A stretch of DNA of 64,000 nt from Candidatus Daviesbacteria bacterium (GCA_016176335.1 JACOXI010000004.1:146303-210302), one strand, 5' to 3'. Positions 2,675 through 64,000 are shown, counted from the first letter of the stretch. Notes: generated from the letters alone by a model not told the origin. Program-made: numbers and translations.

Positions 2675-3733
2675 ATGTTTGATCCTATTTACTCAATATC
2701 ATCTAAAACAATTTCCAATATGACCGAGATTGCGGAAATCAAAGCAATCGTGGAAAGATCCAAAGTACTACCTTTAAATGAGGCACAACTTCGGAGACAG
2801 GCAATTTTGCGGATGGCCCATACTTCTACTTCTATTGAAGGTAATAAACTGGCCCAATTTGAAGTGGGTAAGCTGATAGAAGGTAAAGCAGTACGTGCTC
2901 CCCAAAAAGATATTTTGGAGGTGGAAAGTTACTATAAAGCTTTAAAGATTTTGGAGCAAATGTCCAAATCAAGACATGATATTACCTTTGAGGACATACT
3001 GAACTTGCACAAAATGGTCATCCAAGGCCAAGTGGACAAAGAAAAAGTTGGTAAGTTCAGACCATCTGATGTGTATGTATTGGGTGATCTGGGCGACGGA
3101 CGCGAAATGTTAAGGTTTAAAGCTCCCCCTGCCACAGTAGTGCCTGATTTGATTTCCGATTTATTAAGCTGGTTGAAACAATCAAAAAAACAAGGCGTGC
3201 ACCCAATTATACGGGCAGGTATATTACATCTTGAGTTTGTCTCCATCCACCCCTTTACAGATGGAAATGGTAGGGTGGCGAGACTCTTGACACAACTCCT
3301 GCTTTACAGAGATGGTTGGGATTTTAGAAAAATTCTGGTTTTGGAGGATTACTATAATCGCGACCGATTGTCTTATTACAATGCGGAGCAAGAAGTTCAA
3401 GGTAAACACTACAAAAAAGGTGTTGATTTTACCTTCTGGCTGGAATATTTTACAACGGGCTTTTTGGTGGAGGCAAGAAAAGTATTGGAGCAAATCCAAT
3501 CTATTGGTTTTGGTAAGGTCAGCAAAAAATCTGATCAGATATTTTTGGATCCGGATGAGATTCAGATCATGGATTTTTTGGCAACCACCGGCAGAATTAC
3601 CTCTGATGATGCCCGAGACATTTTAAAAGTCGCCAAAAGAACCGCTCAATTAAAGCTGAAAAATCTGTCAGATAAAAGATTACTTAGGATAAACGGTAAA
3701 GGTCCCAGTACTTACTACACTATTGCGCGATAA
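2675..3733 (+). CDS. Fic family protein (Fic_N + Fic + C-terminal wHTH)
   Basis: HPFTDGNGRVARLL Fic motif. N-terminal TSTSIEGN inhibitory-helix-like motif. ATG at 2675 with an AAAGG SD. The track ORF from 2615 starts at TTG inside the repeat array. Confidence 0.85.
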   Translation: MFDPIYSISSKTISNMTEIAEIKAIVERSKVLPLNEAQLRRQAILRMAHTSTSIEGNKLAQFEVGKLIEGKAVRAPQKDILEVESYYKALKILEQMSKSRHDITFEDILNLHKMVIQGQVDKEKVGKFRPSDVYVLGDLGDGREMLRFKAPPATVVPDLISDLLSWLKQSKKQGVHPIIRAGILHLEFVSIHPFTDGNGRVARLLTQLLLYRDGWDFRKILVLEDYYNRDRLSYYNAEQEVQGKHYKKGVDFTFWLEYFTTGFLVEARKVLEQIQSIGFGKVSKKSDQIFLDPDEIQIMDFLATTGRITSDDARDILKVAKRTAQLKLKNLSDKRLLRINGKGPSTYYTIAR

Positions 3734-3759
3734 CTTGCGCGATTATTGCGCGATTGACA
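3722..3759 (+). promoter_or_regulatory. second array of three TTGCGCGAT(T/A) repeats overlapping the Fic stop codon, followed by a TTGACA -35-like box
   Basis: ATTGCGCGATAAC, TTGCGCGATTA and TTGCGCGATTG sit in tandem. TTGACA at 3754-3759, about 114 bp upstream of the RRM gene. Confidence 0.45.
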
Positions 3760-6521: not shown

Positions 6522-6626
6522 CAGCTCCGATTTTAGCCTCAATCTGGGGGGTTGACGTATCCCTTTGATGGTGAAACAATTAACTTGAAATCTCTAAAAC
6601 CAAACAGACGGTAACAAGGGATTTTT

Positions 6627-7106
6627 TTGTTGGAACAAAGGAGATCTATCATGCTTAAAACAGTTCATGTTAATGGATATAACAATGGAAACGGGATCAT
6701 TAAGAGTAACGGCATTGTTAATGGAAATGGACAGAAGAAACCAACCCTTCTAGAAAAGATCTCGTTCAAATTTATCGAATGGGTGGGTACCCCCTACTCT
6801 TTAATAGTACATTCATTTTTTTTCATCGGAGTCTTTGCTTTAAAATATGTGGGCTTTTCTGTTGATCAAATCCTTTTGATATTAACAACGGTTGTTTCTT
6901 TGGAGGCTATCTACCTGGCAGTATTTATTCAAATGTCGGTGAACAGAAACACCCAAAGTCTGGAAGAAGTGGAAGAAGATATTGAAGATATTCAGGAGGA
7001 CGTGACAGAGGAAGAAGAGGCCCACAAAGTCCTGCTTAATATCTCAAATGAGCTCAAAAATATCCAGCAGGATTTAAATACCCTCAAGAAAAAAGGCATA
7101 CTGTAG
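6627..7106 (+). CDS. DUF1003-family small membrane protein
   Basis: Two TM helices. Conserved ...IYLAVFIQMSVNRNTQ segment and an acidic C-terminal tail. Confidence 0.55.
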   Translation: MLEQRRSIMLKTVHVNGYNNGNGIIKSNGIVNGNGQKKPTLLEKISFKFIEWVGTPYSLIVHSFFFIGVFALKYVGFSVDQILLILTTVVSLEAIYLAVFIQMSVNRNTQSLEEVEEDIEDIQEDVTEEEEAHKVLLNISNELKNIQQDLNTLKKKGIL

Positions 7107-17188: not shown

Positions 17189-17233
17189 TTATATCTTAAA
17201 TCTTCTATCAGATAAATATGGATTGGGTTTACG
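17189..17233. repeat. 45-bp direct repeat, copy 1 (duplicate of the dinB 3' end: last 14 codons plus stop)
   Basis: 43 of 45 nt are identical to 18167-18211. Both differences are synonymous in the dinB frame. Confidence 0.8.
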
Positions 17234-18166: not shown

Positions 18167-18211
18167 TTATATTTTAAATCTTCTGTCAGATAAATATGGA
18201 TTGGGTTTACG
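18167..18211. repeat. 45-bp direct repeat, copy 2 (the genuine 3' end of dinB)
   Basis: See copy 1. Confidence 0.8.
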
Positions 18212-26527: not shown

Positions 26528-28237
26528 ATGAGCAAGTTTAACATTACCTTAGGACTTCTGTTTTTCCTGTTCGTTATTCCCTGTATCATGTTTCCTGCCT
26601 ATGCTATAGTTGATCCCCTGTCTGTTCCCAATAACAAATTTGGCATCCATATTATCTCCGCCACCCCCAATGAATCCTCTCCTGCTGCCCAGCTTGTCAA
26701 TACCAACGGAGACTGGGGTTATCTGACCTTCCTCATAGAGAGTAAGGATAGAAATGAAAATAAATGGCAGACATTTTTTAATGATCTAAGGAGGCGTCAC
26801 CTTATTCCCATTGTTAGACTGGCCACAAAACCCGTCAATGAGCATTGGGAAAAACCCTATGAGGGGGAGGAAGAAGCTTGGGCAGATTTTTTAGATAAAT
26901 TAAATTGGCCTACCAAAAACAGATACATTGTCATTTATAATGAACCTAACCATGGCAAAGAATGGGGCAATGTTGTTGATCCTGCCACATATGCCAAAGT
27001 TTTGGATAAAACCATTGATGCTTTAAAAGAAAAATCTCCGGATTTCTTTGTAATGAATGCCGGCTTTGATGCTTCAGCCCCACACCAACCACCCAATTAC
27101 TTTGATGAGGTTAGTTTCCTGTCGGAAATGGATAAGTCTGTCCCGGGTATATTTGAAAAACTGGATGGATGGGTTTCACACTCCTATCCTAATCCCGAGT
27201 TTGCAGGTTCACCAAATGGAATCGGGCGAGGAACAGTTAGAACCTGGTTTTGGGAACTGCAGCAATTAAGGATTCTGGGAGTAACTAAAAATCTTCCTGT
27301 TTTCATAACTGAAACAGGTTGGAAACATGCCGAGGGGTTAGTGTATAATCCCAACTTTCCAGCTGAAGACACTATTGCAAATTATTACAGAAATGCTTTT
27401 GAGGATGCTTGGTCCGCCCAACGTATTGTGGCTGTAACTCCTTTTATACTCAATTACCAGCAATTCCCCTTTGACCATTTCTCTTTCAAAAAAGTTAACT
27501 CCGACAGCTTTTATACTTCTTTCCAAACTATAAAAGATCTGCCCAAGACAAAGGGACAGCCCATATGGGAAAACTTAGCAAAGCTGACTAAGGGTGAAGT
27601 TTATTCTTCTGTGGTGGCAGGAGAAACATATACTATCTACCTTACATTTGAGAATGTTGGTCAATCCATTTGGAATGGCTCCACAGGTGATCAGGTAAGA
27701 TTGATTCCTTTGGAAGGAGGAAAAGAATTAGGTATTTCAGAAATTGAATTACCCAAGGATAAAAAGATTGAACCAGGTCAAAACTATACTTTTACCATTA
27801 AACTCAAAGCTCCTAAAAGCGGCTCTTTTAAAGTATCTTTAAATTTATTTGAGGGTCAAAAACCATTTAATTCAAAGCCTTTACAATTTACCACCCAGGT
27901 TAAAGCACCTGTCATCTTAAAAATCCTGACCAAATTAAAATGGAAGGATTCGGCAGCAGGAGAGTATATTTTGAAAACCTCTGGGGCAATCGGTGAATCC
28001 ACCCAAAAGGTGATTATAAATTCGGCCGGCAGATCCGAACAATTTGAAGCCAGGTACCTGTTGCCTGATTACACCTTTAAATTCAGTTTGGAAAGACCCA
28101 ACTACAAACTTCAAACCATCCAACAAACTCTCAAAAGCGGTGAAAATACCCTTAATTTTGGAGAACTCCAACCTGATCTTATATCAAATATCTTTAATCC
28201 TTTAGAGCTTTGGAAACTTCTTCCCTTTTCAAAATAA
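26528..28237 (+). CDS. secreted glycoside hydrolase, clan GH-A (GH5-like), with C-terminal beta-sandwich domains
   Basis: Signal peptide. NEPNHG (catalytic acid/base Glu) and ITETGW (nucleophile Glu) motifs. About 250 aa of C-terminal extension. Confidence 0.6.
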   Translation: MSKFNITLGLLFFLFVIPCIMFPAYAIVDPLSVPNNKFGIHIISATPNESSPAAQLVNTNGDWGYLTFLIESKDRNENKWQTFFNDLRRRHLIPIVRLATKPVNEHWEKPYEGEEEAWADFLDKLNWPTKNRYIVIYNEPNHGKEWGNVVDPATYAKVLDKTIDALKEKSPDFFVMNAGFDASAPHQPPNYFDEVSFLSEMDKSVPGIFEKLDGWVSHSYPNPEFAGSPNGIGRGTVRTWFWELQQLRILGVTKNLPVFITETGWKHAEGLVYNPNFPAEDTIANYYRNAFEDAWSAQRIVAVTPFILNYQQFPFDHFSFKKVNSDSFYTSFQTIKDLPKTKGQPIWENLAKLTKGEVYSSVVAGETYTIYLTFENVGQSIWNGSTGDQVRLIPLEGGKELGISEIELPKDKKIEPGQNYTFTIKLKAPKSGSFKVSLNLFEGQKPFNSKPLQFTTQVKAPVILKILTKLKWKDSAAGEYILKTSGAIGESTQKVIINSAGRSEQFEARYLLPDYTFKFSLERPNYKLQTIQQTLKSGENTLNFGELQPDLISNIFNPLELWKLLPFSK

Positions 28238-28242
28238 ATCCT

Positions 28243-28266
28243 GAGCGTAGTCGAAGGATTGCTATA
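28243..28266. repeat. minimal copy of the GC-rich palindromic element (ATCCTGAGCGTAGTCGAAGGAT)
   Basis: Shares both terminal motifs with the copies at 1291-1315 and 62906-62968. Confidence 0.55.
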
Positions 28267-28396
28267 TTTTGATCCACTTTGTCCCAGTTGACAGGGAAAT
28301 ATTTGTATTATATAGTAACAGTACCTGTTTAAATCAAGTCGCAAGACAAGATTTACATTAGCTTTAGAACTAGTATAAACAGGTTTTCTAAGAAAG

Positions 28397-28424
28397 TCCC
28401 GCAAGGGGCTTTTTTAGTGGGCCA
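28397..28424 (+). terminator. hairpin GTCCC-GCAA-GGGGC followed by TTTTTT
   Basis: Read directly. Lies 25 nt upstream of tRNA-His. Confidence 0.45.
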
Positions 28425-28449
28425 AAATCAGGTACAATATAGGCAGTAT

Positions 28450-28522
28450 GGTGGCTGTAGCTCAAAAGTAGAGCGTCTGTTTGTGGAACAGAAAGTAGCG
28501 GGAGCATTACCCGTCAGCCACC
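28450..28522 (+). tRNA. tRNA-His (anticodon GTG) with G-1; atypical D-loop and T-loop
   Basis: G-1 plus acceptor GTGGCTG/CAGCCAC. Discriminator C. D-stem GCTC/GAGC. Anticodon stem-loop TCTGT-TTGTGGA-ACAGA. The T-loop AGCATTA and D-loop AAAAGTA lack the usual GG and TTC elements. Confidence 0.6.
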
Positions 28523-28578
28523 CACTATAGGTTGATTATTCCCTCCTCTTTTGATATACTTGGTAATATGCCTACACG

Positions 28579-28881
28579 ATGGAAAGATTAAGGAAAAAAG
28601 TCATAATAGATGAAGCAGTAACACGAGCACAACAACTTGTTGTGGAGAGCCCTTTACAGATAGGGTCTATCGTTGCCCATCCAGATCATCCTAGAGCTTT
28701 AAAACTTAGAGGCATAGAAGGTGATACAGCTATACTACTAGATTTGGATCCTCAGACTAAAGGAGTAACTGAACTTCGGTTTCCTGCAGGTAAATTATTC
28801 GATCCCAACGTAGCACATCAAATAGCAATAAGTATTGCAAAAGGTCAACAACTGCTCCAGCAGATAAATTGGGCTAATTAA
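28579..28881 (+). CDS. hypothetical protein
   Basis: 100-aa ORF. Confidence 0.45.
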   Translation: MERLRKKVIIDEAVTRAQQLVVESPLQIGSIVAHPDHPRALKLRGIEGDTAILLDLDPQTKGVTELRFPAGKLFDPNVAHQIAISIAKGQQLLQQINWAN

Positions 28882-29012
28882 AGTCTATCTAGGATTCTAT
28901 AATTGATTCCATTGGGTACAAACACCGGATGGTCCGGAAGACCGCTACCTAACCAGGGAAGCCCCCGAGTTACTGTGGAAGTTAACTGTTAGAATCCACC
29001 GCCTGGGAGCTT

Positions 29013-29057
29013 GTAGTAGGTGTTCAGGTGCGACCTTAACCAAGGTGCGTCCTTAAC
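29013..29057 (+). repeat. 46-bp repeat, left copy (inverted partner at 33703-33753)
   Basis: GTAGTAGGTGTTCAGGTGCGACCTTAACCAAGGTGCGTCCTTAACA. About 41 of 46 nt match the reverse complement of 33703-33753. Confidence 0.75.
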
Positions 29058-29440
29058 ATAAGTTTATATCAAGCTATTCCACCCTTGAGATAGATATATA
29101 CAAGAGAGAGGAATCACCACACCCTATAGTTTGACTTCCAGGACTTTTTTCGTTATAATACACCGCTATGAATAAATTTCCAATTATCAGGGTACTTCAT
29201 TTTGTATATTTGGGGTTGCTTCTAACCTTTATTTTATTTTACGGTATATCAGCCAATCAAACTGCATAGTATCTGTGCTGAAACTTCGGTAAAAACTGTT
29301 CTAGGGTCAACCTCTAACGTTGATGCCTATGATTTCTACCAGCAGCTTTATAACGACTGTATCTCCCAAAAAAATATCAGTCTTGTTGGCTTTCTCGTCT
29401 ATAGCCTGTAATATATGTTATTATTCGTAAGCACATACTT

Positions 29441-29716
29441 ATGGAAAGAGATACCTTTACACCAGATAATCCAGAAGCAAACGACCTAAACAGGCAAGCA
29501 GAGTTGCTGTGGGGATTAACTGTTGAAATACAACGAAATAACCTGCCGAGCCAAATAATTGGGGGATTGCGCCTAATCTGCTTGGGAGCCTACAGACGCA
29601 TGATGAATCATGGTGAGCAAGGTTGGGCAGATAGAATTTTGGAGTATGCACAAAGCAGACACCCTACACATTCACAAAATATACAAGGCCAAGAAGTGGC
29701 AGATGCTACCCATTAG
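29441..29716 (+). CDS. hypothetical protein
   Basis: 91-aa ORF. Its 3' end overlaps the convergent hemolysin-III gene. Weak. Confidence 0.3.
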   Translation: MERDTFTPDNPEANDLNRQAELLWGLTVEIQRNNLPSQIIGGLRLICLGAYRRMMNHGEQGWADRILEYAQSRHPTHSQNIQGQEVADATH

Positions 29717-30304
29717 AACAAAGACATGCCAGATAGTGTGATTAAATTTTAGCTTTTTCCAGGCAAAAAAGATCAAACCCAAGGTATAAAATAACCCTCC
29801 TGTCAGAAGTAATATGATGATCTTAAAAGCTAGAATTGCCAGCAAAGATGGAAGAATGAAGACAGCTATCCATCCTAAAAATAGATAAGTTATCACCTGT
29901 AAAATTTTAAACTTCTCCATAAAAATAGACTTATAGACAATCCCTAGAATTGTGACCAGCCAGACTATGGCCAGGACTGTCAAACCTGAATTATTCTTAA
30001 GTGCAGCTAAAATAAATCCGCTGTAAGTCCCAAGAATCAATAAAAATATAGAACTATGGTCTAAAATCTTAAAAACCCTGTTTGCTTTAGTAAAATAAAG
30101 ACCGTGATAAAGGGTGGAAAAAGTATAAGTTAAGATAATAGTTGTCCCAAAAATACTAACTCCCAACACTTTCCAAAAATCATCACTTTTAAAAGCATTT
30201 ACCAAAAGTAGTATGGCGCCAATTATTGAAATCATAAGTCCCACCCCATGAGTGATACTATTTGTCACCTCCTCCAAAATAGATGTATACTGTTCAGCTT
30301 TCAT
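29672..30304 (-). CDS. hemolysin III family (PAQR/YqfA-like) membrane protein
   Basis: 7 TM helices. N-terminal ITHG. His-rich C-terminal motif HVFVLMGSICHF. Confidence 0.8.
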   Translation of the reverse strand: MKAEQYTSILEEVTNSITHGVGLMISIIGAILLLVNAFKSDDFWKVLGVSIFGTTIILTYTFSTLYHGLYFTKANRVFKILDHSSIFLLILGTYSGFILAALKNNSGLTVLAIVWLVTILGIVYKSIFMEKFKILQVITYLFLGWIAVFILPSLLAILAFKIIILLLTGGLFYTLGLIFFAWKKLKFNHTIWHVFVLMGSICHFLALYIL

Positions 30305-30391
30305 GTTTTAATGCTCCCAAAGCATATAATAACCCAAAATTTTACGGCAATTTGCATTTTGGGCACAATTTTGTAAAATATAATTAACCAC

Positions 30392-30769
30392 ATGGAATAT
30401 CTATCAATAATACCGGCTACAGCTTTAGGCTTTTTAACTTTGAAGGCCACTACCCACCCTCAATCACGGATCAGACAGAAACTGCCCAACATTAAAACCA
30501 GAAGAGTTCAGGTTTTCCCGGTCATCCGTTTTTACTTTTTCGGAAGAGTTATTCACCTGCATCACTGGATAAATTTTTCCATACTGTTAATCCTTTCAAT
30601 TTTTGTCACCGGCAATATCCTGGATTATGTGGTGACTAAAGGTTTACTTTTGGGAGGGATTATTCAAGGTCTAAGCTTGCCCGGAGAACACAGAAAAATT
30701 GTCTACAAAGATTTCTCCATTGACAGGTTGACCTCCACCACCCCACCCCTGCCCAGAAGACGATTATGA
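30392..30769 (+). CDS. hypothetical membrane protein
   Basis: 125 aa with 3 predicted TM helices. Precedes the efflux operon. Confidence 0.45.
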   Translation: MEYLSIIPATALGFLTLKATTHPQSRIRQKLPNIKTRRVQVFPVIRFYFFGRVIHLHHWINFSILLILSIFVTGNILDYVVTKGLLLGGIIQGLSLPGEHRKIVYKDFSIDRLTSTTPPLPRRRL

Positions 30770-31857
30770 GTATCTCCAATCTTCTAAAATCCGGTAAGAA
30801 AAGGGTCATTATTCCAGTGGCAATAATAATTCTTGTCATTTTTGGTTTTAATTTTTTTGCTCCCAAAAAACGGCTTCCTTTGCAATTTACCCAAGTTATC
30901 AGGCGTGACATAAAAGAAATTGTTGCTTCGTCAGGCACTTTAACAGGCAAGGATGTAGTCAATCTAAAATTCAAATCTTCCGGTAGAATCGCCTATATAA
31001 ATGTTAAGGCAGGAGATCGGGTTTTTGCCTACCAGACTATCGCCGGTTTGGATACAAAACTTTTGTCAATAGATTTACAGCAAGCACAAAATACTTTAAG
31101 AGATAAGCAGGCTAGCGCAGAAAAAGTGGAGGATGATGTCAAAGATCACAGTAAGGATGAGACCTACACCCAACGCTCAACCAGAACCACGGCCCAGGTG
31201 GCAAGGGATAATGCCGTAGATGCTGTAAAAGAGGCCCAGCAAGCTTTGCTTGACGCAAATATATACACACCAATTGCCGGAATTGTGACCCAGGCCCCCA
31301 TAACTTTCGGTCAATATGTTTCCTCGTCCGACCTGATTGCCCAAGTGGCGGATATTTCTTCAATTTATTTTGAAACTGATGTTTTGGAGGCGGATATCAG
31401 CAAGATTTCTTTAGGGCTCAAGGCAGAAATAACCCTGGATGCCTTTGGTGAAAAAGTATTCACTGGTGTTGTTGACCAAATTATCCCCCAAGCCAAAACT
31501 ACCTCATCCGGGGCCACAGTTGTTCCGGTCAAAGTGAAATTAGACCCAACCAAAATGACCTTTATAAACGGGCTTTCCGGCCAAGCCTCAGTCATTGTAA
31601 AAACATCCCAAAACGTCCTAACTTTACCGAGGGAGGCTGTCAGGGATGATAATACGGTATTTATACAAAAAAATGGCAGTGTCTCTCCTGCAAAAGTTGT
31701 CCCGGGTATTTATTCTGATACTGAAGTGGAAATAAAAGAAGGATTGGAGGATAAGGAAAAAGTACTGCTTAACCCTCCTGCAAATGACACCGGGACCCGG
31801 AATCGATCCCCGCTGCAAGGAATTTTTCGCTTCTTTGGAGGCTCAAGAGGCAGATGA
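30766..31857 (+). CDS. efflux transporter periplasmic adaptor subunit (HlyD/MacA family)
   Basis: N-terminal TM, biotinyl/lipoyl-like hairpin, coiled coil and beta-barrel. Overlaps the downstream ABC ATPase by 4 nt. Confidence 0.8.
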   Translation: MSISNLLKSGKKRVIIPVAIIILVIFGFNFFAPKKRLPLQFTQVIRRDIKEIVASSGTLTGKDVVNLKFKSSGRIAYINVKAGDRVFAYQTIAGLDTKLLSIDLQQAQNTLRDKQASAEKVEDDVKDHSKDETYTQRSTRTTAQVARDNAVDAVKEAQQALLDANIYTPIAGIVTQAPITFGQYVSSSDLIAQVADISSIYFETDVLEADISKISLGLKAEITLDAFGEKVFTGVVDQIIPQAKTTSSGATVVPVKVKLDPTKMTFINGLSGQASVIVKTSQNVLTLPREAVRDDNTVFIQKNGSVSPAKVVPGIYSDTEVEIKEGLEDKEKVLLNPPANDTGTRNRSPLQGIFRFFGGSRGR

Positions 31858-32531
31858 GTTTAATAATAAAGCTGTCTAAAATAAATAAAGTCTACAAGAC
31901 CGGGGAAATTTCCTTTCTGGCTTTAAAAAATATTAACCTTGAGGTCAAAAAAGGAGAATTCATTGCCATCATAGGTGCTTCAGGTTCTGGTAAATCTACC
32001 TTAATGAACATCATAGGCCTCCTGGATCACCCTACCTCCGGAACATATATTCTGGACGGGCAGGACAGTTCGGATTTTGGGGAGGACTATTTGGCGAAAA
32101 TCAGGAACGAAAAAATCGGCTTCGTCTTTCAGTCATTTAACCTGCTTGCCAGAACTTCTGCCTGGGATAATGTTGCCCTACCCTTAATTTATGCGGGAAT
32201 ATCAAGAAGTCAAAGACTGCAAAGAGCAAGGGAAGTTTTGGAACGGGTAGGGCTGGGTGACAAATTAGAGTCCCACCCGAATCAGCTTTCAGGGGGACAG
32301 CAGCAAAAGGTGGCTATTGCCAGAGCTTTGGTTAATAATCCGGAACTCATTTTGGCAGATGAGCCAACAGGCAATCTGGATTCTAAATCAGGCGGGGAAA
32401 TCATGAATCTTTTTGAAAAGCTTTCCAGTGAGGGTAAAACCATTATTATGATTACTCATGAAGCAACAATTGCCCGCCATGCAAAAAGGGTTATCAGGCT
32501 AAAAGATGGGGGTATCCAATGGAGACAATAA
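31854..32531 (+). CDS. ABC transporter ATP-binding protein (MacB/LolD/FtsE-like)
   Basis: Walker [10 protein letters not shown]. Signature [15 protein letters not shown]. Walker [12 protein letters not shown]. Confidence 0.9.
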
Positions 32532-33700
32532 ATTCAGCTCTAACATCAATCTTTGCGAACAGATTAAGGTCTTTCCTGACGATTCTGGGAATTGTGATTG
32601 GCGTCATGTCTGTCATACTGTTAATCTCTTTGGTGTCCGGCCTTAAAACTTATATCACCAACCAAATCCAAGGCTTAGGGGCAAACCTACTGATAGTAAT
32701 TCCCGGAAGAATTGGTGGAGCCCGCTCCCCCGGCGGGGTACAGGCAAATAGGTTGGTTTATGCTGATGCTTTAAATTTGCGCAGCAAGTTATCAAATGAT
32801 GCACAAGTCTCTGCTGCAATACAAAGAAACGCCACTTTAAAGTTTGGCAACAAAAACGACAAAGGAGTGGCTATTTTTGGGGTTGAGGCCACTTATCCAA
32901 AGATTGTTTCCATAAAACTTACAGCAGGCAGATTTTTCAATCAGTCAGAACAACAATCATCAAGAAAGGTGGCGGTAATAGGTACAACAGTTAAAAGTAA
33001 CCTTTTTGGGGAGGGCAGCGGCTTGGCACAAACAATTGATGTGGCAGGATTGAAATATACTGTCATCGGCATATTGGGGCAAAGAGGAGCCATCTTTGGT
33101 ATTGACTTGGATAATGCAATTTATATCCCCCTACCTTCTGCCGAAAGGCAATTTGGGATAGATCGCCTTAACACCATCTATATTTCTGCCAATAGTGCCG
33201 AATCAGTCGGGGATGTGCAAAATAAGGCAGTCTCGCTTTTGAAAAAAAGATTATCAGAGGACGAATTTACTGTACAAACCCAAGAACAAACCTTGTCCAC
33301 AATTTCTCAAATAACTGGGGTTTTAACTCTGGCTTTGGGAGGAATTGCCGCAATATCTTTAATTGTCGGGGGAATAGGCGTTATGAATATTATGCTTGTG
33401 TCAGTCACCGAACGCACAAGAGAAATTGGACTTCGAAAGGCTCTCGGGGCCAGACCAAAAGATATCAGAAACCAATTTTTGATTGAGGCTATGACTTTAT
33501 CAGGGCTGGGTGGTATTATTGGAATTGTTTTGGGAATTGGCATATCCCTTATTATTGGCAGATTTTTTACCACCACTGTCCCACTTTGGTCAGTGGCCCT
33601 CTCTTTTGGATTTTCCATGCTGGTGGGAGTAATCTTCGGAGTTACCCCCGCCATCCGCGCTGCCAGACTAGATCCAATTACTGCTTTAAGGTATGAATAA
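32519..33700 (+). CDS. ABC transporter permease (FtsX/MacB-type)
   Basis: N-terminal TM, a large periplasmic domain and a C-terminal FtsX-like 3-TM bundle. Confidence 0.85.
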   Translation: METINSALTSIFANRLRSFLTILGIVIGVMSVILLISLVSGLKTYITNQIQGLGANLLIVIPGRIGGARSPGGVQANRLVYADALNLRSKLSNDAQVSAAIQRNATLKFGNKNDKGVAIFGVEATYPKIVSIKLTAGRFFNQSEQQSSRKVAVIGTTVKSNLFGEGSGLAQTIDVAGLKYTVIGILGQRGAIFGIDLDNAIYIPLPSAERQFGIDRLNTIYISANSAESVGDVQNKAVSLLKKRLSEDEFTVQTQEQTLSTISQITGVLTLALGGIAAISLIVGGIGVMNIMLVSVTERTREIGLRKALGARPKDIRNQFLIEAMTLSGLGGIIGIVLGIGISLIIGRFFTTTVPLWSVALSFGFSMLVGVIFGVTPAIRAARLDPITALRYE

Positions 33701-33702
33701 AA

Positions 33703-33753
33703 GACAGGTGTCGAGGACGCACCTTGGCTAAGGTCGCACCTGAACATCTGCTA
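33703..33753 (-). repeat. 46-bp repeat, right copy (inverted relative to 29013-29057)
   Basis: Contains CAGGTG...CACCTG. A T-tract follows at 33765-33771. Starts 3 nt after the permease stop. Confidence 0.75.
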
Positions 33754-34359
33754 CTTGCCTATTTTTTGAGCATATTCTTGGGGACTTAACCATTCAGGCT
33801 CCGGCACTACTTTATAATTCGGATTTTTCACTATGGTTGGCTGGCCATTTTCTTCCACCATATAATAGGCAAAACCGCGCATTTTTTTAACAGGCTCATA
33901 ATCTGCATGGCCGGGTAAAGAAACAGGATCAGCTTCTTCAAAATTTACTGGTGAATCATCCTCTGTGACCAGCCAGGTCTTTCCAGTATTGACGGCCAGA
34001 TGACCTGTTCCCGATGGAATAAACACACTATCTCCTTTCTTTACCCTTATTGCATAAAAAGATTCGACCTCATCATCAATTGGGTTTCCGTTAGAATCTG
34101 TCTTCCTGTTTTGAAGAAGCACCATCCCTTCCCCTGCTAAAACCCAATATGTTTCATCAAGACGGCCAATATGATAATGTCCGTAAGTTTTTATATACTC
34201 TCCCCCAACAGTTCCTGTTTCCCAAACAGTGATATTTTTCTTATCCTTCCCACCTCTAATCATGTAATAGTGAATTTCCGGGCTTTCTGCTTCAGGGTGC
34301 ATCAGCACCTCTTTCATTTTCTCATGCTCTCTTGCGGCAAAAGGCTTTAACATATACAA
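33751..34359 (-). CDS. cupin-type glucose-6-phosphate isomerase (archaeal-type PGI)
   Basis: TYGHYH and GE..Y cupin motifs characteristic of cPGI. 202 aa. Confidence 0.7.
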   Translation of the reverse strand: MYMLKPFAAREHEKMKEVLMHPEAESPEIHYYMIRGGKDKKNITVWETGTVGGEYIKTYGHYHIGRLDETYWVLAGEGMVLLQNRKTDSNGNPIDDEVESFYAIRVKKGDSVFIPSGTGHLAVNTGKTWLVTEDDSPVNFEEADPVSLPGHADYEPVKKMRGFAYYMVEENGQPTIVKNPNYKVVPEPEWLSPQEYAQKIGK

Positions 34360-61898: not shown

Positions 61899-64000
61899 TA
61901 TTGTAACATCTTCCTTGCTAGATATTGGCCTGTGTAAGAGGATTTTATTTTGGCAATATCTTTGGGAGAACCTTCAGCAATAACCTGTCCGCCCTGATCC
62001 CCGCCTTCCGGGCCTAAATCTATTACCCAGTCGGTATTTTTAATTACATCCAAATTATGCTCAATAATAATTACAGTATTTCCGAAGTTTACTAATTTTC
62101 TTAATATATTTAATAGCCTTTCTATGTCCGCAAAATGCAAACCGGTTGTGGGTTCATCCAGAATATAAATTGTCTGTCCTGTCGGTCTTTTGGAAAGCTC
62201 TGCAGATAGTTTAATTCTTTGGGCTTCACCTCCGGATAAGGTCGGGGCACTCTGGCCCAATTTTATATAACCTAAACCTACATCATCGAGCACTTGAAGT
62301 TTATTTTTAATATTTGGTATATTTTCAAAAAATCCCAAAGCCTCCGCAACGCTCATGATCAAAACCTCGGCTATATTTTTATCTTTGAAATGAATGTCCA
62401 AAGCTTCTCTGTTATATCTTGCACCATTGCAGCCTTCACAAGTCACATACACATCCGGCAAAAATTGCATTTCTATTTTCAGCTGACCTTCACCCTCGCA
62501 AACCTCACACCTACCCCCCTTAACATTAAAAGAAAATCTTCCAGGCCCATAACCTTTGATCTTGGCTTCTCGAGAGGAAGCAAATAAATCTCTGATAAAA
62601 GTAAAAGCCCCGGTGTAGGTGGCCGGATTTGAACGGGGAGTGCGACCAATTGGTGATTGGTCAACCAAAACCACTTTATCTAATAATTCCAACCCTTGCA
62701 ATTCCCGAAAACGGCCAGGTTTTTCTCTGGATCCGTAGATTTTTTGAGCCAAGGCCTTATATAAAATATCGTGTATAAGGGTTGACTTACCTGATCCTGA
62801 AACGCCGGTTATTGCAATAAATTTGCCTAAAGGAAAACTGACATTGATATTTTTTAAATTATGTTCGGCAGCACCCAAAAGTTTTAAATGACCATTTTGA
62901 GTAGATCCTTCGACTCGTCTTCGACCCTGAGGCTCAGACCCGAAGGGCTGCGCTCGCTCAGGATGACCTACGGTCACCTGTTTTTTTCCGGAGAGATATT
63001 GCCCTGTCAAAGATCTAGCGCTCTTTTTGATCTCTGAAGATGTTCCTATAGCCACAATTTCCCCTCCATGCTCCCCTGCTCCGGGTCCGATTTCAATCAA
63101 AAGGTCGGAATTTTCCATAGTTTCCGCATCATGTTCATTCACAATCACGGTATTACCCAAATCACGAAGTTTTTTTAAAGTATCAATCAATCTGGAATTA
63201 TCCCGCTGATGCAGTCCGATTGAGGGTTCATCCAAAACATACAGCACTCCTGATAATCCCGACCCGATTTGGGAGGCAAGCCTGATTCTTTGTGATTCTC
63301 CGCCTGCCAAGGTCATAGAAGCTCTGTCCAAAGTTAGATAATCCAACCCTACATTGATTAGAAATTGAATTCTGGATTTAATCTCCTTTAAAATCGGTGT
63401 AGCAATTTGCATTTCCCGATCAGAATAGGAGACATTTTTTACCCATTCCAGTGCTTGAGAAATAGATTGGCTTGTGACTTCCGCAATATTTAATCCTTCT
63501 ATGGTTATGGATAATGCCTCCTCTTTCAACCTTGCTCCGGCGCAACCCGGACAGATTTCTTTCACCATGTATTTTTCAATCTCCGCCTTAACATAATCTG
63601 ATTCGGAACTGTCATATCTTTCTTTAAGATATGACACTAAACCCTGAAAAGTTGAATAAAAATGAGTCCATTTTCCCTGCCTGTTTCTGCCCTCAACTTT
63701 AAACTGTTGTTCCCCTGTCCCCCTAAGCAATACTTTTTTTGCTTCCTCGGGAAATTTTTCCAATCTGGTATTCATATCAAAACCGTACTTTTTTCCCACA
63801 GCCTCAATTACCCTGGTAAACCAGGTTTCATTAGTGGCCAGTTTGCTCATGGGTAAAATGCCTCCCTCTGCAATGGAAAGAATTGGATTCAAAATCGTTG
63901 CCTCGTCAATCAAAAGAAGCGATCCTAAACCGGTGCAAAGGGAACAGGCACCATGAGGTGAATTAAAAGATAAAAGACGGGGCTCAATTTCTGAAAAAGC
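61898..64000 (-). CDS. uvrA: excinuclease ABC subunit A (partial; N-terminus beyond the window end)
   Basis: Two ABC ATPase modules, zinc-finger Cys pairs and GVSGSGKST. The reading frame continues past 63913 to the window edge. In-frame GC-rich insert at 62906-62968. Confidence 0.93.
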   Translation of the reverse strand, partial: AFSEIEPRLLSFNSPHGACSLCTGLGSLLLIDEATILNPILSIAEGGILPMSKLATNETWFTRVIEAVGKKYGFDMNTRLEKFPEEAKKVLLRGTGEQQFKVEGRNRQGKWTHFYSTFQGLVSYLKERYDSSESDYVKAEIEKYMVKEICPGCAGARLKEEALSITIEGLNIAEVTSQSISQALEWVKNVSYSDREMQIATPILKEIKSRIQFLINVGLDYLTLDRASMTLAGGESQRIRLASQIGSGLSGVLYVLDEPSIGLHQRDNSRLIDTLKKLRDLGNTVIVNEHDAETMENSDLLIEIGPGAGEHGGEIVAIGTSSEIKKSARSLTGQYLSGKKQVTVGHPERAQPFGSEPQGRRRVEGSTQNGHLKLLGAAEHNLKNINVSFPLGKFIAITGVSGSGKSTLIHDILYKALAQKIYGSREKPGRFRELQGLELLDKVVLVDQSPIGRTPRSNPATYTGAFTFIRDLFASSREAKIKGYGPGRFSFNVKGGRCEVCEGEGQLKIEMQFLPDVYVTCEGCNGARYNREALDIHFKDKNIAEVLIMSVAEALGFFENIPNIKNKLQVLDDVGLGYIKLGQSAPTLSGGEAQRIKLSAELSKRPTGQTIYILDEPTTGLHFADIERLLNILRKLVNFGNTVIIIEHNLDVIKNTDWVIDLGPEGGDQGGQVIAEGSPKDIAKIKSSYTGQYLARKMLQ
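62906..62968. repeat. GC-rich palindromic element inserted in-frame in uvrA (adds about 16 aa: HPERAQPFGSEPQGRR)
   Basis: Termini TCCTTCGACT...CGCTCAGGA match the TCCTGAGCG/AGTCGAAGGA family. Local GC is about 65% against about 38% flanking. No frame disruption. Confidence 0.6.

Follow-up and report, generated by a model that had tools for sequence, protein, structure and literature searches.

A 64,000-nt stretch of Candidatus Daviesbacteria DNA (GCA_016176335.1 JACOXI010000004.1:146303-210302; hereafter the window, with positions counted from its first letter) carries two inverted copies of a 46-nt sequence on either side of a hemolysin-III gene (hlyIII) and a MacAB-type efflux operon. The arrangement raises the question of whether these genes arrived as a mobile cassette bounded by its own terminal repeats, or whether repeats and genes merely came to lie together. 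We favour the second answer: with a probability of about 0.78, the two arms are independent copies of a short, modular palindromic repeat family of Daviesbacteria and related Microgenomates, similar to the repetitive extragenic palindromic (REP) sequences and partnered with a Y1 transposase-like enzyme, while hlyIII and the MacAB genes are residents of the locus and not cargo. The inverted pair around the efflux genes is an ordinary coincidence of two repeat copies.

The inverted repeat pair

The initial annotation of this DNA, made from the sequence alone, had described an inverted repeat matching at about 41 of 46 positions. A repeat search bears this out; the arms are 46 nt long, complementary at 41 of 46 positions (89%) and 4650 nt apart, and they form the longest and best inverted repeat of the 64-kb window. 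The right arm, previously placed at 33703-33753, is corrected to 33709-33754.

29013-29058, + strand: left REP-like copy, with cores at 29026-29036 (AGGTGCGACCT) and 29043-29053 (AGGTGCGTCCT) and with feet GTGTTC on the left and TAACAT on the right
33709-33754, - strand: right REP-like copy (cores 33731-33741 and 33714-33724), taking up the 50 nt that separate the permease gene from the convergent cupin-type glucose-6-phosphate isomerase (cupin-GPI) gene

The 26-nt core GGTGCGACCTTARCCAAGGTGCGTCC occurs exactly twice, against no occurrence in 100 dinucleotide-preserving shuffles. Within each copy, two 11-nt cores (AGGTGCGACCT and AGGTGCGTCCT) follow one another in tandem with a period of 17 nt; GTAG is found in both copies, and both have eroded, mismatched feet. 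The right copy does not start 3 nt after the permease stop codon (33698-33700), as had been stated; the arm begins 8 nt downstream of that codon, and a CAGGTG stem (33705-33710) begins 4 nt past it. At its other end, the GTAG that opens the right copy contains the TAG stop codon (33751-33753) of the minus-strand cupin-GPI gene.

The efflux operon is resident at the locus

Pfam supports the earlier account of the gene content, a hemolysin-III gene plus a MacAB-type efflux system with no transposase between the arms. HlyIII is encoded on the minus strand, and an HlyD-type membrane fusion protein (MFP), an ABC ATPase and a MacB_PCD/FtsX permease on the plus strand. The genes that matter for the comparison with relatives are the following.

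29672-30304, - strand: hemolysin-III family membrane protein gene (Pfam PF03006, E 3e-37)
30392-30769, + strand: p125, gene of a 125-aa membrane protein without a Pfam family match, conserved upstream of the operon (homologue in comparison locus L010 at 6601-6944)
30766-33700, + strand: MacAB-type operon, composed of MFP (30766-31857), ABC ATPase (31854-32531) and permease (32519-33700) genes
33751-34359, - strand: cupin-GPI gene, with its TAG stop inside the right repeat copy

Let us consider the possibility that hlyIII and the MacAB genes were carried here by a non-autonomous transposon-like unit, with the two copies as its terminal inverted repeats. A 46-nt, 89% inverted repeat around 4.65 kb with no transposase inside would suit such a unit, and the Y1 genes of relatives, described below, are likewise bracketed by these elements. 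The synteny of relatives, which the initial annotation had proposed to compare, tells against it. The MFP-ABC-FtsX operon, together with p125, occupies the same chromosomal place beside cupin-GPI and the glucose-6-phosphate dehydrogenase gene (G6PD) in four fetched loci (L010, L039, L040 and L041; comparison loci carry L numbers throughout), none of which has the bracketing repeats (0/4). None of the four has hlyIII at this place either (0/4; no match in L010, no PF03006 in L039, L040 or L041), hence the genes of the supposed cassette do not form one unit. Collinearity with L010, whose locus is also that of L003, extends over 26.6-35.8 kb of the window at ~70% nucleotide identity and takes in a 569-aa open reading frame (ORF), a conserved non-coding block, tRNA-His, p125, the MFP-ABC-permease genes, cupin-GPI and G6PD. 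A single repeat copy, 94% identical to the window's, lies there ~270 nt upstream of the MFP gene. A two-core scan of L039, L040 and L041 (46 kb, syntenic) found no repeat copy, and the permease-cupin gap of L040, only 26 nt long, is empty.

The permease is 83-86% identical across the four loci (84-86% for L039, L040 and L041 alone) and has homologues 77-88% identical in many Daviesbacteria; the MacAB-type operon is a core operon of this lineage, and the window's own permease is 100% identical to a protein that NCBI assigns to Candidatus Daviesbacteria. Inspection by eye for the target-site duplications that a transposed unit might have left found none just outside the copies, where the flanks ctgggagctt (29003-29012) and ttgcctattt (33755-33764) have no direct repeat in common, and the GC content is 0.34-0.44 both inside and outside the arms, with no shift in composition. 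The presence of the operon at the same site in relatives without the repeats, together with the lack of a target-site duplication and of a GC change, shows the operon to be ancestral at this site, the repeats being later, independent arrivals. We thus consider the transposon explanation refuted for practical purposes, leaving it a very small residual probability; the hemolysin-III and MacAB genes are not a mobile cassette, and the locus gives no hint of a recent horizontal acquisition of efflux genes.

The same comparison bears on another reading offered earlier, that of a long-range pairing element, which we take as pairing of the two copies within one long transcript to regulate the operon. 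Complementarity at 41 of 46 positions is what such pairing would need. Nevertheless, no relative keeps the pair, hlyIII is encoded on the opposite strand between the copies, and each copy folds on itself, leaving this reading unsupported and its probability close to negligible.

A dispersed family of modular palindromic repeats

If the arms are members of a repeat family, further copies should be found at unrelated genes, a search that the initial annotation had also recommended. Exact-pattern scans of genome and metagenome collections (three matches in the genome-collection scan), plus a relaxed two-core scan of all fetched loci, found them at unrelated loci in related contigs: the two-core element is present in L003/L010, L001, L002, L009, L011, L017, L022, L026, L027 and L030, on contigs that are AT-rich and of Microgenomates type. 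In viral contigs the sole match fell in a coding region and has no obvious bearing on the family, and the two-core scan of the shuffled window gave no match in 20 trials. The family unit is an 11-nt core, AGG-TGCGW-CCT (AGGTGCGWCCT) or its inverted form AGG-WCGCA-CCT, which is itself dyad-symmetric (AGGT-N3-ACCT). Two or three cores follow each other at a strict 17-nt period, and in the alignment they are enclosed by the feet (A)TGTTC on the left and GAACAT(A/G) on the right. The whole element is palindromic as well; in 14 elements, 72% of positions pair in register against 27-48% when the register is slid.

Among the copies found, several lie at gene ends and others within genes. A copy stands directly after the stop codon of a GATase_3 (gatD-like) gene at the same position in L026 and L030, and another between a VTT-domain gene and a methylase gene in L027. 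In L017 the element is found between glycosyltransferase family 2 (GT2) genes and also in frame, joining two GT2 domains, and in L009 it is in frame within a class-I aminoacyl-tRNA synthetase (aaRS) fragment. Two metagenome-assembled genomes (MAGs), one of them Daviesbacteria, carry it within purL, where it keeps the reading frame of the variable interdomain linker (L002 584-625 and L001 701-742; ..THVQVAPSLRSHLNM..). The repeat positions differ between otherwise collinear genomes, as the window and L010 illustrate, and between these two the element keeps its 94% identity where the genes are ~70% identical.

Two other classes of sites were compared with the element by eye and rejected. Integron attC sites and XerCD dif-like sites do not fit, with RYYYAAC/GTTRRRY cores not found; the two cores of the element are direct repeats instead of inverted arms around a 6-8-nt spacer, and there is no integrase gene nearby. 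The GGTGCG of the family cores also occurs in the XerC arm of E. coli dif.

The scans brought up two further observations. Arrays of 3-6 tandem 17-nt units with the core GGTGCGSCCT are present in L012 (600-700), L016 (3130-3220), L019 (5845-5900) and L021 (1630-1680), unrelated contigs of which some are GC-rich; in L012 and L016, AraC-family (HTH_18) genes have the arrays at their 3' end. These may be distant relatives of the Daviesbacteria repeat type in other phyla, or a coincidence. The MAG records of L003 (CAYICZ010000012.1) and L002 (CAYNFQ010000008.1) are labelled 'uncultured Gammaproteobacteria'. Both labels look wrong, the L003 locus being syntenic with Daviesbacteria and ~70% identical to the window across the part common to L010, and the L002 locus being Daviesbacteria-like.

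A Y1 transposase-like gene flanked by the repeats

A stretch of 800 bp in L011 holds two copies of the element, one on each side of a 225-aa ORF that matches Pfam Y1_Tnp (2e-10) and has REP_Tyr_transpos, the model of REP-associated tyrosine transposases (RAYTs), as its best NCBIfam match (8e-10, below cut-off). The Y1 genes of L035/L036, L046 and L047, located between uvrA and uvrB, each have 2-3 units of this repeat to their left and to their right, and in L033/L034 the gene is flanked by degenerate unit variants. In total, the uvrA-uvrB interval harbours this gene, which we call type 1, in five independent Daviesbacteria loci (L011, L033, L035, L046 and L047). The left copy of the window ends in 18 nt, AGGTGCGTCCTTAACATA, that match exactly the unit beside the Y1 gene start in L046 and L047. 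Repeat and enzyme co-vary: the Y1 gene of the Curtissbacteria locus L037 is flanked by its own altered units, AAGGTGCCACCTT and AAGGTTCAACCTT. The whole Y1 module is enclosed, in every Daviesbacteria locus, by short copies of the uvrB 3' end, which code for RDQIKEL; this indicates that the module probably goes back to a single old insertion passed on vertically.

Y1 homologues number in the thousands, with Davies-, Levy-, Shapiro- and Curtissbacteria among the source names. The motifs YH..RG, MPNHxH (HUH) and SRYIHLN, the last with the catalytic tyrosine, are invariant in 17/17 Y1 sequences. Against NCBIfam NF047646, the Daviesbacteria and Curtissbacteria proteins score 35.5-48.2 bits (E 8e-9 to 1e-12) and E. 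coli RayT scores 179. A PDB profile search with the Y1 protein returned ISDra2 TnpA (E 0.002). The AlphaFold model of the protein (predicted local distance difference test score 73, predicted template modelling score 0.75) has its best PDB structural match in 4ER8, the E. coli RAYT-REP complex (E 1.5e-5), followed by the IS608 and ISDra2 TnpA structures at ~2e-4. Taken together, the 225-aa protein is an HUH/Y1 enzyme of the IS200/IS605 superfamily, closest to the RAYTs, though it stays under the curated RAYT threshold.

The consistent placing of repeats on both sides of the Y1 gene also bears on the notion that the tandem 17-nt units are duplex binding sites for an efflux regulator or a nucleoid protein, with the Y1 gene as merely one target. 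Dyad-symmetric cores and tandem units at a fixed period are suggestive of such sites, the MacAB operon has copies nearby in L010 as in the window, and no covariation demands a folded single strand. The positions of the copies, however, vary: the window has them 1.7 kb upstream and just downstream of the operon, L010 has one 270 nt upstream, and L039-L041 are without any. Other copies lie at unrelated genes and inside coding regions, and the two-sided flanking of the Y1 gene, together with the co-varying units of L037, is the signature of a transposase-repeat pair. We regard the binding-site explanation as improbable and continue with a repeat family served by a Y1 enzyme.

A second Y1 subfamily, type 2, was encountered in the comparison loci. 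Its members, 33-36% identical to the first, lie at 3940-4614 in L039 and 5392-6114 in L041, in both cases directly upstream of the MacAB MFP gene and flanked by a different hairpin family (CACCCGGTG / CCACCC..GGGTGG). L010 has relics of type-2 hairpins at two places, one upstream of the MFP gene and the other past the permease-side ORF; in the window, neither CCACCC..GGGTGG nor CACCCGGTG was found. Duplicates of gene ends stand beside Y1 modules of both types, from the uvrB 3' end in L011, L033, L035, L046 and L047 and from the permease 3' end in L039.

Folding and terminator behaviour

Well-preserved family copies form a long imperfect hairpin in single-stranded DNA (ssDNA), with predicted folding energies of -13 to -20 kcal/mol and z scores of -5 to -10.7. 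The window copies fold weakly by comparison (-7.4 to -9.9 kcal/mol, z -1.4 to -2.3; the left copy -7.4 to -8.5 kcal/mol), and since their feet are eroded as well, they are probably old and inactive.

The initial annotation had noted a CAGGTG/CACCTG stem followed by a T-tract in the right copy, and had considered that both copies might belong to a dispersed terminator-like repeat. The stem and T-tract description holds on the minus strand, where the right-copy hairpin is directly adjoined by UCUUUUAUU in the layout of a G+C-rich stem and a U-tract. It fails on the plus strand, where the T-run (33762-33767) sits 19 nt past the CACCTG half-stem (33737-33742), too far for a canonical terminator. 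The right copy, with its hairpin directly before UCUUUUAUU, is thus a plausible terminator on the minus strand, and judging from this layout it probably serves as the terminator hairpin of the cupin-GPI transcript while supplying the stop codon of the gene. The C-terminus of cupin-GPI is 2 aa longer in the window than in L040, which is without the element. A simple terminator scan of the window flagged neither copy because their loops are too long for the rules of the scan.

Might the element, then, have nothing to do with mobile elements and be a generic intrinsic terminator, working in both directions, that convergent selection has placed downstream of genes again and again? The right copy between convergent genes, with its minus-strand hairpin and adjoining UCUUUUAUU, is compatible with this, as are the members directly after stop codons in L026, L030 and L027. 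The family as a whole is not: a terminator stem with an immediate U-tract is absent from the left copy, from the right copy on the plus strand and from most family members, most of which have no T-tract after the hairpin. Some members are in frame in genes (purL, GT2, aaRS) and some lie upstream of a gene start, including copies just upstream of the Y1 gene start. Moreover, 94% identity of the element against ~70% identity of the genes points to a shared sequence-specific partner instead of convergence. We consider a pure terminator origin quite unlikely. Of the earlier description, the dispersed repeat therefore stands in its essentials, with the element present at unrelated loci in relatives, and the terminator-like character is confined to the right copy on the minus strand.

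A REP/RAYT-like scenario and its relation to known systems

IS200/IS605 TnpA and E. coli RayT act by an established ssDNA mechanism. By analogy with them, we suppose that the Daviesbacteria Y1 enzyme would recognise the hairpins in ssDNA and cleave beside them. In this way it would have dispersed the repeats, which reached gene ends and, in a few cases, entered tolerant linkers of genes in frame. One copy probably landed beside a gene fragment, in the variable region downstream of tRNA-His, and the other where the permease and cupin-GPI genes converge with little space between them. That the two point in opposite directions would be a coincidence with 1 chance in 2.

Several observations weigh against this scenario and should be kept in mind. 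Covariation of the hairpin pairs in 14 elements does not rise above that of shuffles, which leaves room for recognition of duplex DNA by another protein. The NF047646 score of the Y1 protein, given above, stays under the curated RAYT cut-off of 80, and the hhalign comparison to E. coli RayT is weak (E 0.024), with HUH and YIxxNP aligned. The family is without the conserved 5' GTAG (or CGTC) of REP sequences; the GTAG of the window copies is absent from the Y1-flanking copies and from most members. The purL linker with the element has the same length as in homologues without it, whereas simple insertion predicts otherwise, and we rejected the element there as a net 14-codon insertion for this reason. 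Seven contigs with copies at unrelated genes come from one metagenome, sample Ga0213870, and these seven copies may derive from several genomes. Only 2 copies are present in the 64 kb of the window, no complete genome having been among the DNA scanned. Finally, tblastn of four Y1 proteins (types 1 and 2) gave no match in the window, and none of the best 120 Y1 homologues listed is on a contig like that of the window's permease, a weak hint that the Y1 gene may be missing from this genome. The last point is to be seen together with the end of the window.

61913-64000, - strand: uvrA, cut at residue 299 by the window end (tblastn 80% identity to L033 UvrA)

In relatives the Y1 gene lies just past the uvrA start, and since the window ends within uvrA, the place where the gene is expected is just outside; by this comparison its home in the present genome would be ~1 kb past the window end, beyond the uvrA start.

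Among known systems, the REP/RAYT partnerships (REPtrons and REPINs; E. coli RayT, 4ER8) share with the Daviesbacteria family short imperfect palindromes found at gene ends, beside convergent or co-directional neighbours, and occasionally inside genes, an HUH/Y1 gene at a fixed locus with its own repeats on both sides, as seen in the Daviesbacteria relatives, a repeat sequence that co-varies with the enzyme lineage, and, on the protein side, 4ER8 as the best fold match and REP_Tyr_transpos as the best NCBIfam model. They differ in that the Daviesbacteria element is modular, with two or three 11-nt cores that recur every 17 nt and may face either way, where REP systems have one hairpin or a REP doublet, and in that the protein is 225 aa long with a C-terminal extension and belongs to a Candidate Phyla Radiation (CPR) lineage. 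REP/RAYT systems have mostly been studied in Proteobacteria, and our full-text literature search found no paper linking RAYT, REPIN or REP with Patescibacteria or CPR. The REP/RAYT-type arrangement is therefore known, while the repeat architecture, the divergent 225-aa enzyme family and the CPR host are new.

By arrangement, the level at which we compared them, the TIRtrons are an even closer counterpart, because the GTAG tag is missing. Here a tyrosine transposase gene (TIRYT) is bracketed by inverted repeats of non-GTAG type, which also exist as dispersed families of moderate abundance (PMC3733652), and the likeness extends from the bracketing of a Y1 gene by non-GTAG repeats to the scattered single units, dimers and clusters, some partly self-complementary. 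Intragenic REPs, many of them in uvr genes, have been described in the same work (Di Nocera et al. 2013). With the IS200/IS605 elements (IS608 and ISDra2 TnpA) the system has in common the HUH/Y1 fold, the HUH and catalytic tyrosine motifs and subterminal hairpins beside the gene. Unlike them, the Daviesbacteria gene is at one site (uvrA-uvrB) in five loci instead of multiple scattered copies, has no tnpB, and its repeats are found at many places where the gene is absent. Rickettsia palindromic elements (RPE), like other palindromic repeats within reading frames, provide a parallel for in-frame copies in tolerant linkers, such as the purL interdomain and GT2 junction. They are about 100-150 nt long, against 42-60 nt for the Daviesbacteria element, which also differs in having a candidate dedicated transposase and in bringing no length gain to purL.

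A broader extension of the scenario is tentative, and we think it rather unlikely to hold in full: Daviesbacteria and other Microgenomates would carry two vertically inherited, domesticated RAYT-like Y1 enzymes, one of the uvrA-uvrB type (type 1) and one upstream of MacAB (type 2), each with its cognate repeats, the type-1 units being able to enter essential genes in frame, at linkers whose length stays the same. If true, the type-1 repeats would imply a replacement-type (copy-over) mechanism instead of plain insertion. Microgenomates are CPR bacteria with genomes of ~1 Mb. The family points to one, and probably two, REP/RAYT-type partnerships in small, streamlined genomes of a CPR lineage, which bears on the question of selfish passenger versus domesticated function, and it offers a compact, well-defined substrate for biochemical tests.

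Neighbouring features of the window

The left copy has a gene fragment next to it, whose intact paralogue lies between the repeat copies.

28922-29002, + strand: truncated fragment of a 91-aa ORF (TPDGPE..ELLWKLTVRIHR), ending 10 nt before the left copy
29441-29716, + strand: 91-aa ORF, the intact paralogue of the fragment, without a Pfam family match

The fragment duplicates the N-terminal 26 codons of the 91-aa ORF (29459-29536); tblastn aligns the two at 63% identity over 27 aa (E 2.8e-5), and they also appear as a direct repeat. A truncated paralogue directly next to the left copy fits with the duplicated gene ends found beside the Y1 modules.

Just upstream of tRNA-His, a 135-nt non-coding block (28286-28420) is 88% identical to L010 2008-2142, compared with ~70% for the neighbouring genes. 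It begins with a promoter-like TTGACA-17-TATATAGT, continues with a long stem ACCTGTTTA..TAAACAGGT and a GTC-GCAA-GAC hairpin, and ends in a terminator, AAGTCCCGCAAGGGGCTTTTTT; we consider it a candidate small RNA gene. The block has no Rfam match, and Rfam searches of the whole window at the gathering threshold and of 28150-29500 at E<=1 returned, near the repeats, tRNAs only.

Two other repeat pairs are present in the window. One is a 45-nt direct repeat (17189-17233 and 18167-18211), 96% identical and 978 nt apart; the other is a 46-nt pair (2577-2622 and 3708-3753) that contains a tandem TTGCGCGAT(T/A)A motif.

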